Below, in pieces: positions 30,201-46,620 of a DNA stretch of 64,000 bases. Each line of letters starts with the position of its first letter. Position 1 is the stretch's first letter. The stretch lies in assembly GCA_965153355.1 (NCBI GenBank), contig OZ231126.1, forward strand, positions 47,430,001 through 47,494,000, given 5' to 3'. The position numbers and the translations under genes were made by a program. The notes under the pieces were generated by a model. That model saw only the letters and a program-made list of their open reading frames with translations. It was not told where the DNA came from and searched no databases. Source of the DNA: Flaccisagitta enflata (Eukaryota).

Positions 30201-33200
30201 TTGGGCCATTGCAATCGAGACAATGAATGTTGAACAATCACTGAATAATGTACTTCACCAGGTCGCTGTCCGATCGATAATAGCAGTTTGACAGTTGCAA
30301 CTGAAATGAGATGTAACTTTAGCTTGTCCCTCCTCTCTCTTTCTCTCTGTCTCTTTCTCTGTCTCTGCCTCTGTCTCTCTCTCTCTCTCTCTCTCTCTCT
30401 CTCTCTCTCTCTCTCTCTCTCTCTCTCTCTCTCTCTCTCTCTCTCTCTCTCTCTCTCTCTCTCTCTCTCTCTGTCTGTCTGTCTGTCTGTCTGTCTCTCT
30501 CTCTCTCTCTCTCTCTCTCTCTCTCTCTCTCTCTCTCTCTCTCTCTCTCTCTCTCTCTCTCTCTCTCTCTCTCTCTCTCTCTCTCTCTCTCTCTCTCTCT
30601 CTCTCTCTGATATCTTTCAGGAGCGCTTGTTGACTCGTCTTGAGCAAGTTGACGTTCAGTTGGACGACTTGGACCGGAAGCGTGTTGAGTGTTACGGCGG
30701 AGAGAAGCAGAAAAAGATGGTTGCCAAACTGCCCGACCAGACGACCGTCTATGACGCGGCCAGAGGAGTCGTCTCCATCCAGACAATCGCAGAATATTAC
30801 AAAAAGCACGGTAAATACAATTTACATGAGGAATAAAGGATGTTGATTTTTTGTTTTCATCAAATTTTTGCCTTTTTTTTTCTCCCAACTATCTCTCAAA
30901 CATCCGTATGGGAACTTGGTAGTTAAACTAGTCTGCGCATGTGTTTATTTTGAGAAATTAAAACAATCTAGAATAATCACGTCCATCAAGACAAAGTCAG
31001 AAACAGAATTGCCCAAAATTTCAGTCTTCACACGCGTCGATAATGAGCCAATAAAACCAGTTGACTTAGGGGGCGTTTCTAGTCAAAGACGATCGCGTTT
31101 TGAAAGGGCCACTCAGTCGCTCGCTACGTTCGCTCGCTCGCACCGCTCACTCCACTCACTCGCTCCGCAGCGCTACGCTTGCTTTGCTCGCTCGCTCCGT
31201 TCACGGGCTCGCTCACTCACTTTGTTCACTCCCTGGTGGGACAGTTAAAATTCTTGGATATGTGTTCACACTGTTATCGCGTTTCACGGGAGGGAACGCG
31301 TTTTTGGTCGTCACCAGAAACACGCCCTTAAAACTGGCAGATGCTTCGTTTCCATTTCGCAGCATCTAACCACCCAGAGATGAATGAGGTTCGTTACTTC
31401 ATTGAAGTAGCGAACTCTACTGGAGTTGATCAGTTCGGTACGCCATCTGCCATTTGCCATCTTCGACGCTAAATAACGCTTAACAACTCCCTCTGCTTCA
31501 AAGTAACTATCATTCTTTAAATTGTCTGCTAGCTTTTCTCATGCGCCGTGCCGCCGACGATCGCGTTGTTGTTGTCAGCTTTTTTTGAAAATTTTGAACG
31601 TAATTCTCTCTTCACATTTGATCGCTCGTCGCCCATTTCTTTTCGCGATAGCTGAATAGTCCAAATCGTTTTCCGTGTCGGGGCTTCGTCGGCGTTATCT
31701 ATCCAAACCATGTCAACAAATCTTCTGCCAATTGAGTCAAACTCGGACGGTCACCACGCAACACGGTTTGGAAGGACTCGAATCCCAAACCGCGTCTCTT
31801 ATTCGCGCTTAAACTTGATGTTTTTCTTGTCATGAAAGAAAACCAAGAATGATTATTTCACGCCAGCTGAATAAGTAGATAGTCAGACTGACTCGGGCGT
31901 AAGCAACAGACTACAACAGACTGTACTGATCGATGCAAATGCGATAAAGCTGAAGCTAGAAGCCAGCGCTTTTATCATATTATCATCGCGCTTTAGGTGC
32001 TTGAAATCATGGTTGTTCAGATCTTGAAAACCATGATTTCTTCCAAGAAAAAAAAATGATGACTGAGAGCGCAGATCTATTTGATGATGTATTTCAAGGA
32101 GTAGTGCGAGTAACCAAAGTCTGTTGACTAACAGCGGTTGAGACTGCAATTCTTTCACTTTCATGTTCTGCCACTTAATCGTGCCTTCTGTTCTTCCGCC
32201 CTTGAACTTAGCGTCACTGCATATGCACCTACATCCAAAAATCGCTTATCATTTCACAAACACCTTTACACTTTCACACGCCCCTGCTCCATCACCTATA
32301 TCCATTTTACCGATCCATTTTACCAATCCATTTCCCTGTTACGGATGGATGCGAATCTCTCTCTTCTACCTGGTACCTCTTTGCGATGAACAAATCATTG
32401 CCATGACTATGTGCCATTCCATACATAGATCGCGTTAACTGTCCCAAATCCACCCCAACAACCTCTCCGCAAATAAATCCATTCACTCACTCATTAGTAC
32501 ATCCAATTCCACATCCTTTTTCACTCTGTCGTCCATTTCCATAAACAAATTCTCACATCCTTTGTTACTTTGTTACACCTACAATTTCATCCACTCCCAC
32601 ACACCCATTGCCATTGCTATTCCCACATCTTTTGCATGCGTTCAAATACATCATGTAAAGGTCGACAAAGATTTCCCGCTTACACGATGCTCTTCGACGC
32701 GGAGACTCAGTCGGTGAAACTCGTCCTCTGGAAGCAATACGAAGATATATGTATGGAATCAAATGAAAAATGGATTTAGTTTTGTGTATCTCAATTGGTT
32801 GACTAGGTGTTCAAAAAAGTGGCTTCAAATACTGCTAGCAAATTGGTGATATGGTTCCCTAATGGTAAAAAAAGTATAACCGAGGTGGAAATGGAAACTG
32901 TGGTGAAATTGTCACCGGAATAAATGCCTGAACACTTTTACGAATCTCAGGCCAAACAATAGAACTGGTTGCCTTTGATAAAGAATACAATACAGGGCCT
33001 GGTAAAACACTACACATTGCAATCAAAGTGTTGACTTGACGATCAAGGATGATTTAAAAACGAAGATCTAAGCCTGAAAGAGTTTTCTCGTGATAGATGA
33101 CTGGCTACCAATGACTTGATCAAATGAAACGAAAACTAGCGGACTTGAGGCATTGCATACCAGCGATATCGCCATTGATTTGTGAAAATCTTTTTTTTCT

Positions 33201-46620: not shown

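Follow-up and report, generated by a model that had tools for sequence, protein, structure and literature searches.

A tandem-repeat gene in Flaccisagitta enflata

The window analysed here is a stretch of 64,000 nucleotides (nt) from Flaccisagitta enflata (assembly GCA_965153355.1, contig OZ231126.1, positions 47,430,001 to 47,494,000 of the forward strand). On its + strand lies the part of a large gene that encodes the repeats; in this marine planktonic eukaryote the whole gene measures 43.6 kilobases (kb) or more, and its product carries tandem copies of a short module built around the motif VYDPxT. We consider it very probable that this is a real, expressed gene and that it represents an undescribed family of hairpin-helix repeat proteins. 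A first-pass annotation, made from the sequence alone, had placed the gene at 30621–46620; these limits coincide with the first base of exon E1 and the last stop-codon base of the isoform that skips exon E12, and the repeat that it described between them is confirmed. However, the start of the gene is to be placed 27 kb or more upstream of 30621, and an extra cassette exon, E5, has been added to the model.

The exons were modelled by a splice-aware fit of P0009, P0006 and further relatives (P numbers denote related proteins), which gave GT..AG junctions and reproduced 17–20 of 20 junction residues at each step, with reading frames intact throughout the spliced model. The E0–E8 junctions rest on this protein-to-genome mapping, and reads were examined over 39900–44900 only. 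P0009, a protein of 443 residues from an intron-less, cDNA-derived environmental contig of 1350 nt, is colinear with E1, E3, E4, E6, E7 and E8, to which it is 94–100% identical (99% overall).

At the 5′ end, E0 (3041–3206) encodes the N-terminal helical, coiled-coil-like region of a short isoform; in tblastn, residues 11–48 of P0007 and 6–49 of P0008 matched 3075–3206 with 68–74% identity. Its donor, CAG/GTAAGT at 3206, joins 30621 to give ..DAIDRLENVQ/ERLLTRLEQV.., with 17 of 20 junction residues reproduced. Because E0, which has an acceptor at 3040, contains no ATG, the start exon lies further upstream. An alternative N-terminus is provided by an open reading frame (ORF) at 22814–24052 with one or more long Ser/Gln/acid-rich exons: residues 4–105 of P0005 matched 23678–24025, inside the 27-kb first intron (39% identity, E 5e-15), and P0005 carries this long N-terminus fused to repeats within a single 4002-nt contig. 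A further ORF (20044–20685) may also be part of the long N-terminus, which would place the long 5′ exons at about 20–24 kb. Ahead of its 16–19 modules, the protein thus has a helix of about 60 residues in the short isoform, whereas the long isoform opens with an extended acidic region of low complexity. Its N-termini are hydrophilic and no hydrophobic N-terminal signal is present in the protein; judged from these N-termini, the sequence is of an intracellular type.

The repeat array starts in E1 (30621–30810), which contains the end of the helix and a first, B-like module; it is 100% identical to residues 1–63 of P0009, agrees with the splice model and has a visible acceptor. E2 (32661–32750) is a candidate cassette exon of 90 nt, in phase and bounded by AG and GTATGG sites, that encodes one module, FPAYTMLFDAETQSVKLVLWKQYEDI. 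It is missing from P0009, while P0005 has a matching extra module (ending ..EEC/RPK), and no transcript of the source species was seen with E2. E3 (33414–33628) encodes two modules (98.6% identity to residues 62–133 of P0009; 20 of 20 junction residues in the splice model), and E4 (33892–33996) one A-type module, placed by P0009 mapping and the splice model. E5 (34894–35175), a duplicated cassette exon with two modules, lies within a tandem duplication of about 1.15–1.2 kb that is marked by direct repeats at 34069/35264, 34446/35630 and 34714/35856 (91–97% identity). Over 69 codons, E5 and E6 differ at 0, 1 and 4 first, second and third codon positions. The E5 donor reads AAA/GTGTGT, and P0029 holds the expected E5–E6 junction PQK/ARRAKK, but its short assembly may be looped; an artefact of assembly or of haplotypes could also account for the duplication. 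E6 (36036–36392) encodes three modules and a poly-Gln linker and matches residues 157–287 of P0009 with 94% identity, in agreement with the splice model.

The next four exons each encode one pair of A- and B-type modules, as the exon borders come after B-type modules. E7 (38156–38401), with a long Lys-rich linker, was placed by P0009 mapping and the splice model. E8 (40004–40213) is covered by residues 370–443 of P0009 (98.6% identity) and by contigs of the RNA libraries X8 and X15. E9 (41090–41299) is joined to E10 in contigs of X7, X8 and X15 and agrees with the splice model. E10 (43795–44049), placed by RNA joints, has a 15-residue duplication of its internal linker, corresponding to a 45-nt tandem repeat at 43898–43990. 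The lengths of E4 (105 nt), E6 (357), E7 (246), E8 (210), E9 (210) and E10 (255) are all divisible by three, which is the expected pattern where exons undergo duplication and may be left out in splicing. Together with the cassette exons E2 and E5, these symmetric exons would, on the sequence, let splicing vary the number of modules.

E11 (44506–44659), joined to E10 in X7, X8 and X15, encodes the last A-type module and a basic tail. It is followed by a 19-nt mini-exon, E12 (44995–45013), seen where contigs of the same libraries extend beyond 44659; its stop codon, TAG at 45000–45002, gives an isoform ending ..QKES, and P0006 and P0010 share the C-terminus QKES of this E12-included form. E13 (46511–46620) is 3′ untranslated region if E12 is included; if E12 is skipped, it encodes a coding tail, APPRVWNPAGSK..RKITSLRK, with the stop ending at 46620. 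The C-terminus of P0012 matches this tail (46510–46614, E 2.5e-12). Two alternative C-termini therefore exist, ending at 45002 or 46620, and an AATAAA signal lies at 46616–46621. The tail pattern APPRVWNP.GSK...PPP.RKITSLR is kept between species, as judged from P0012, and its RKIT presumably fits a basophilic kinase site.

Spliced transcripts of the repeat gene

The first-pass annotation had named RNA as the check on its junctions, and spliced transcripts do exist. Contigs of X7, X8 and X15, which are RNA libraries from marine samples, contain a joint 41297>43793 (GT..AG, cut +2) that becomes E9–E10 after a 2-base shift, and a joint 44048>44505 (GT..AG, cut +1) that becomes E10–E11 after a 1-base shift. 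An X15 contig of 886 nt covers E9, E10 and E11 and continues beyond them; past 44659, the contig sequence consists of the E12 mini-exon and then of 46511 onward, that is, E13. Across 39900–44900, read depth was about 10–60 on exons and zero in most intron bins, save transposon-like stretches. The DNA and RNA runs that contain the window stretch are marine metagenomes and one organism.

Architecture of the module array

A six-frame motif scan of the window returned 21 regular-expression matches. Sixteen of these are genuine modules, which all map to the + strand at 32690–44542; the remaining five are chance matches at scattered sites. Three modules missed by the expression, all of them degenerate, were found in a stop-to-stop ORF listing of 30–47.5 kb: TTVYDAARGVVSIQTI in E1, TSVYDKENKSAKLML as the second module of E3 and TVVYDPKTQTAQLQSL as that of E7. 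The total is thus 19 modules in 11 exons or, leaving out the duplicated E5, 17 modules in ten exons (30621–44659, + strand), exactly the number that the first-pass annotation had counted. The module consensus is YxxVYDPxTxxxKLxxWxxY. Across 79 modules from seven family proteins, spacings of 31 and of 39–41 residues alternate, reflecting the A/B alternation described at first pass, and the window itself shows the tandem pattern [YQ][TA]x[VI]YDxxTxxxKLxx[WL]xxY with this alternating spacing in 19 modules.

Numbered from the Val of VYDP as position 0, the most constant residues in the 79 modules are Y+1 (79), Y+16 (76), D+2 (74), L+10 (71), K+9 (67), W+13 (64) and T+5 (59). Q+6 occurs in 43/79, T+7 in 15/79 and K or R at +14 in 40/79; B-type modules have no Trp. 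Linkers are basic, as the first-pass annotation had also noted, with ARKPKKLPEQT and NKPKW as examples from the exon alignment. The composition is rich in Tyr (7–9%) and Lys, and the repeat region has an isoelectric point (pI) of about 9.3.

Strong constraint on old copies

Paralogous exons share only 67–77% DNA identity and their flanking introns cannot be aligned. Within the A halves (42 codons each), differences at codon positions 1/2/3 amount to 4/0/19 for E8 versus E10, 5/3/23 for E8 versus E9 and 3/3/23 for E9 versus E10. For E8, E9 and E10, the proportion of non-synonymous differences (pN) is 0.05–0.09 and that of synonymous differences (pS) is 0.70–0.88, which is saturated. Given the saturated silent sites, the low pN and the unalignable introns, the copies are old and each is under strong purifying selection, in line with the reading of third-position differences in the first-pass annotation. 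Selection for silent-site divergence was dropped as an explanation, since pS values above 0.75 are a Nei–Gojobori counting artefact at two-fold sites. Pairwise comparison of four full-length homologues gave a mean identity of 77% over 189 module columns, 66% over 176 linker columns and 55% over 79 N-terminal columns, with some modules missed by the regular expression counted as linker.

Relatives fall into three subfamilies

The translation of a single exon (72 residues) found 13 longer proteins at E 5.6e-161 to 9.4e-28. Because relatives are found at E values down to 5.6e-161, the repeat is not a product of chance. With P0007 as query, 17 proteins were found, and with a mixed alignment 11; combined, the three lists hold 32 distinct proteins, all from jgi, merc, lgn or ena (environmental or run assemblies) and none of them named. 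A profile of seven window exon translations, compared with all 1,835,955,588 representatives, retrieved 52 proteins with E ≤ 1e-3; of these, 39 had E ≤ 1e-10 and 15 had E ≤ 1e-30. Full-length homologues are present in several species; among P0028–P0071, the survey of sources covers P0030 and P0067. Metagenome contigs yielded 68 pattern matches for P0008 and 51 for P0009, none of which was confirmed as a related locus.

Three subfamilies can be told apart. The basic type, to which the window protein belongs, has a pI of 8.8–9.5 in P0006–P0011, the exception being P0005 with its long N-terminus (pI 5.75). An acidic subfamily (pI 4.4–5.5) is built from pairs of TTVYDPxTEGIKLVSWxEYLKxNKPPKQDW and xAEYDExTQSVKLVFWKxY, and a third, Trp-less subfamily repeats DDLLAVYDxxTQxVIxVTRKQY.

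No match to known families

The first-pass annotation could assign the protein to no known family, and the searches agree: nothing was found in Pfam at the domain level or in sequence and fold searches of the PDB. With four window exons as queries, no Pfam family reached its cut-off, the best being PF14408 (Actino_peptide) at 14.1–21.2 versus 25 bits. Summed whole-protein scores for PF14408 do exceed 25 bits in P0005 (37.3), P0011 (30.9) and P0008 (29.5), with 0 significant stretches and matches at profile positions 3–18. PF12997 (DUF3881; cut-off 27 bits) behaves similarly, with 12.8 bits for a window exon, 27.1 for P0007 and 29.8 for P0005, again with 0 significant stretches. Membership in either family was rejected, as about 15 of 58 or 37–46 of 283 profile positions are matched and repetition multiplies the score; both are bacterial families of unrelated architecture.

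More specific candidates gave no match either. The plectin repeat (PF00681) was not matched at E ≤ 10 by the four window exons, the di-module of P0021, P0021 itself or P0063. At the same threshold, the four exons matched neither the tau/MAP repeat (PF00418) nor the nebulin repeat (PF00880), and the exon translations contain no PGGG and no SDxxYK. No Cys or His is conserved in the columns of the 79 modules, and there was no zf-C2H2 match in Pfam. YD/Rhs repeats were dropped because Pfam gave no match and the spacing differs, and a secreted adhesive Tyr/Lys protein because there is no signal peptide. Sequence search of the PDB gave best E values of 1.2 with a single exon and 0.054 with the profile; the exon match and the profile match, a 19-residue stretch of Ciao1, were rejected as chance. 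Neither the full model nor an A-B unit had a Foldseek match in the PDB at E ≤ 0.001, and VIA-align against 48,161 chains reached a best Z of 2.4; for units this small, such fold-search negatives are weak evidence. The ESM Atlas held no usable match for P0007 or for residues 330–620 of P0019, and none of the papers listed by a single literature search on the VYDP repeat was relevant. On these comparisons, the family is undescribed and lineage-restricted.

Predicted structure of the modules

The first-pass suggestion that each unit is a β-hairpin followed by a short helix is supported by AlphaFold2 prediction. For P0007 (alignment of 18 rows; mean predicted local distance difference test, pLDDT, 64.8; predicted template modelling score, pTM, 0.21), the model shows a helix at residues 13–72, behind which the succession strand (6)–turn (4)–strand (6)–helix occurs 17 times. 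For window exon 8 (7 rows; pLDDT 75.5, pTM 0.36), it shows two strand-turn-strand-helix units, the helix of the A unit comprising 16 residues. Within modules, pLDDT is about 70–87. Given the pTM values of 0.21 and 0.36, the modules are predicted to have no fixed packing against each other. A two-copy prediction for residues 1–90 of P0007 gave a score of 0.03 (mark 0.32), which speaks neither for nor against dimerisation. The checks proposed at first pass, by repeat profile, AlphaFold and Foldseek, thus yielded 52 relatives at E ≤ 1e-3, predicted hairpin-helix units and no fold match.

If side-chain directions are read as we suggest, which is our interpretation and not taken from model coordinates, the conserved V0, L+10, W+13 and Y+16 would come together as a very small core. 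YDPxT corresponds to residues 2–6 of the designed hairpin chignolin, GYDPETGTWG, which was optimised for a stable turn (PMC9054626). This identity fits a structural role of the motif.

Comparison with known repeat systems

Repeat proteins of several kinds resemble the window protein in part. Tau, MAP2 and MAP4 (microtubule-associated proteins, MAPs) as well as nebulin have basic repeats of about 31–35 residues whose number is varied by alternative exons, an alternative long acidic N-terminal region and, presumably, one module per lattice subunit. The window protein shares this layout in repeat length, basic repeats, cassette-exon number and acidic alternative N-terminus (P0005, pI 5.75). Repeats of tau and nebulin are, however, disordered or helical, with PGGG or SDxxYK motifs; the window modules have neither motif and are predicted to fold alone. 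C2H2 fingers and zinc-free designed ββα peptides are alike in combining a hairpin and a helix in about 25–30 residues and in forming tandem arrays. Unlike C2H2 fingers, the window modules have no Cys/His ligands, and their stability would need an aromatic mini-core.

The hairpin motif of plakin repeats resembles the hydrophobic-Asp-Pro-x-Thr turn seen here. Desmoplakin, plectin and envoplakin carry plakin (plectin) repeats, which are described as binding intermediate filaments, each repeat being a hairpin with two antiparallel helices and 4.5 repeats packing into one globular domain (PMC4726743). On that description, plakin repeats and window modules are alike as short tandem units with the β-hairpin first and the helix after it, and both occur in basic proteins, filament-binding in the case of plakins and putatively so here. 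By the same comparison, the window modules differ in having one helix and no predicted packing (pTM 0.21–0.36). No plakin chain appeared in the fold lists, where matches this small are weakly detectable.

A putative binder of a periodic filament

We propose, tentatively and by analogy, that the window protein may make multivalent contact with a periodic lattice of the cytoskeleton, in a layout like that of MAPs or nebulin. The array would lie along a periodic intracellular polymer, such as a microtubule, actin or another filament, with each A-B pair contacting one lattice repeat, as MAP2/tau or nebulin do, and with the N-terminal regions projecting or pairing. We infer such a periodic partner because every copy, linkers included, is nearly unchanged in protein while silent sites are saturated, and because the repeat region is basic; its likeness in layout to MAP2/tau/MAP4 and nebulin lies in a period of 31–40 residues, in its basic charge and in the long acidic N-terminus available as an alternative. 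A filament-binding role is thus putative and one possibility among several. We rank it first; a general or cortical adaptor comes second, ahead of a passive elastic string, then an RNA binder and then an LC8 or centrin hub. A more specific version of the periodic-filament proposal strikes us as improbable as a whole: the 31-residue unit would be a self-folding, zinc-free ββα 'finger' with a chignolin-like YDPxT turn and an aromatic mini-core, A-B pairs would serve as a 70-residue ruler reading heterodimeric cytoskeletal lattice repeats (e.g. one α/β-tubulin dimer), splicing would set the length, and sister subfamilies would be lipid-anchored.

Several observations weigh against a filament binder, the main ones being the acidic and probably lipid-anchored relatives. 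The same modules occur in two sister subfamilies whose proteins are acidic (pI 4.4–5.6). Moreover, six acidic relatives (P0025, P0026, P0030, P0056, P0072 and P0073) start with MGGC(Q/H)SS or MGCTMSS, which we take to fit N-myristoylation and palmitoylation, so that these N-termini are likely myristoyl/palmitoyl anchors. These starts are followed by a conserved PL[RK][RK]KGxLVEAESKPYL, and the window protein has no such lipidation motif. As sister subfamilies are acidic, several with MGGC starts, neither basic charge nor a single partner is family-wide. No likeness to tau/MAP, nebulin, plakin or further filament-binding repeats came up in Pfam or, within the limits that apply to units this small, in the fold searches, and the structure models derive from shallow alignments (7 and 18 rows) with a mean pLDDT of only 65–76. 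Finally, poly-A RNA-seq of the source organism (X23) had 0 reads on the four exons in 39900–44900 among 12.2 million reads sampled, with only 2 partial reads, both inside a repeat. This suggests stage- or tissue-restricted expression and argues against a cytoskeletal component with broad expression.

The lipid-anchor motifs also speak for a general multivalent adaptor or cortical scaffold, in which modules would act as interaction beads gathering copies of a soluble or membrane partner. The MGGC relatives would then be membrane-tethered, and the window protein tethered via its N-terminal helix or long N-terminus. A module common to subfamilies of opposite charge and the lack of predicted fixed packing between modules (pTM 0.21) fit this picture; the window protein, however, is without a lipidation motif, and near-identical tandem copies and linkers suit a periodic partner better than independent beads, which leaves the adaptor unlikely in our view. 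The predicted beads on a string, the Tyr- and Lys-rich composition, the exon-wise modular growth and the recent exon duplication could also describe a passive structural or elastic string, with folded beads and basic linkers serving as a spacer or spring, e.g. in muscle or another specialised cell, and no ligand per module. Yet spacers usually tolerate changes in surface and linkers, which is hard to match with a pN of 0.05–0.09 at saturated silent sites, and the organism's RNA-seq shows no sign of abundance; we therefore regard a spring as improbable.

Binding of single-stranded RNA in series by zinc-free, finger-like modules with exposed Tyr and Lys is less probable still. The predicted ββα topology and the pI of about 9.3 are compatible with it, and Y-3, Y+1 and K+9 would, from strand geometry rather than model coordinates, face away from the core, but sister subfamilies are strongly acidic, no RNA-binding family was matched in Pfam, and neither nuclear localisation nor RGG-type motifs were noted. 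A hub engaging a small dimeric or EF-hand partner once per module, either LC8 via TQT-like strands or centrin/calmodulin via LxxW[KR], is very doubtful. LC8 clients are disordered, 8-residue strands anchored by TQT, and the Sfi1 centrin-binding repeat is helical, with the pattern Ax7LLx3[F/L]xxW[K/R]. Some modules do read KTQT (DPKTQTAQL in E7), and L+10 (71/79), W+13 (64/79) and K or R at +14 (40/79) give LxxW[KR]. However, T+5, Q+6 and T+7 occur in 59, 43 and 15 of 79 modules, distant relatives have TEG or TKG in place of TQT, and the motif sits within a predicted folded hairpin rather than in a free strand or long helix. For Sfi1, there was no Pfam match, LxxW[KR] alone is present, positions +5/+6 are T and Q/K instead of LL, the segment is predicted as a strand, and B-type modules lack the Trp. 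That the locus is non-functional, as a pseudogene, assembly artefact or transposon-borne repeat, is refuted for the gene as a whole by spliced contigs in three RNA libraries, intact frames under strong purifying selection and full-length homologues in several species; the possible artefact at E5/E6 and the four exons without reads in the organism's poly-A run would be the points in its favour.

The locus provides a clean, testable case of a conserved, undescribed repeat. Pfam and the PDB do not show the family, yet it is expressed in ocean metatranscriptomes and very strongly constrained, and so clearly exemplifies the conserved 'dark' proteins of marine plankton. Should the modules fold alone, they would rank with the smallest metal-free folded repeats in nature and be useful to protein design and to understanding how tandem arrays evolve exon by exon. 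A defined partner, be it a filament, a membrane or RNA, would establish a new class of multivalent binder whose valency is tuned by alternative splicing.

Other features of the window

Nine other window ORFs matched 0 Pfam families, and an Rfam search of the window gave 0 matches. In the first intron, a 182-codon frame at 28721–29269 (+) has a Cys-rich start, MSCFPCCVKS..., followed by Lys/Asn/Asp-rich sequence; it matched neither Pfam nor the N-termini of the family and could be another alternative 5′ exon or chance.

Among the intronic elements, a transposon-like or short interspersed nuclear element-like sequence at 42906–43239 (in opposite orientation at 31070–31250) reached a summed metatranscriptome depth of up to about 3400, versus 10–60 on exons, and contigs there link 43145 backwards to 42089, with 10 additional letters at the joint. 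Probably this element is an expressed repeat of wide occurrence that does not belong to the gene. Between E10 and E11, the intron contains an inverted repeat resembling a miniature inverted-repeat transposable element (44136–44480), with arms of 155 nt that are 89% complementary and 35 nt apart. Two copies of another intronic element, at 37843–38015 and 42413–42585, are 82% identical and carry degenerate, telomere-like CCCTAA/CCTAAC arrays.

Simple repeats are found throughout. Trinucleotide arrays of about 0.6–1 kb at 9124–10171 and 17488–18071 would encode, depending on frame, poly-His, -Asp, -Ser, -Ile or -Met. Microsatellites comprise (CT)n at 30333–30608 and 46312–46488 and (CATA)n at 34589–34881 and 35765–36023, and an 11-mer satellite of 54 copies occupies 38805–39398.

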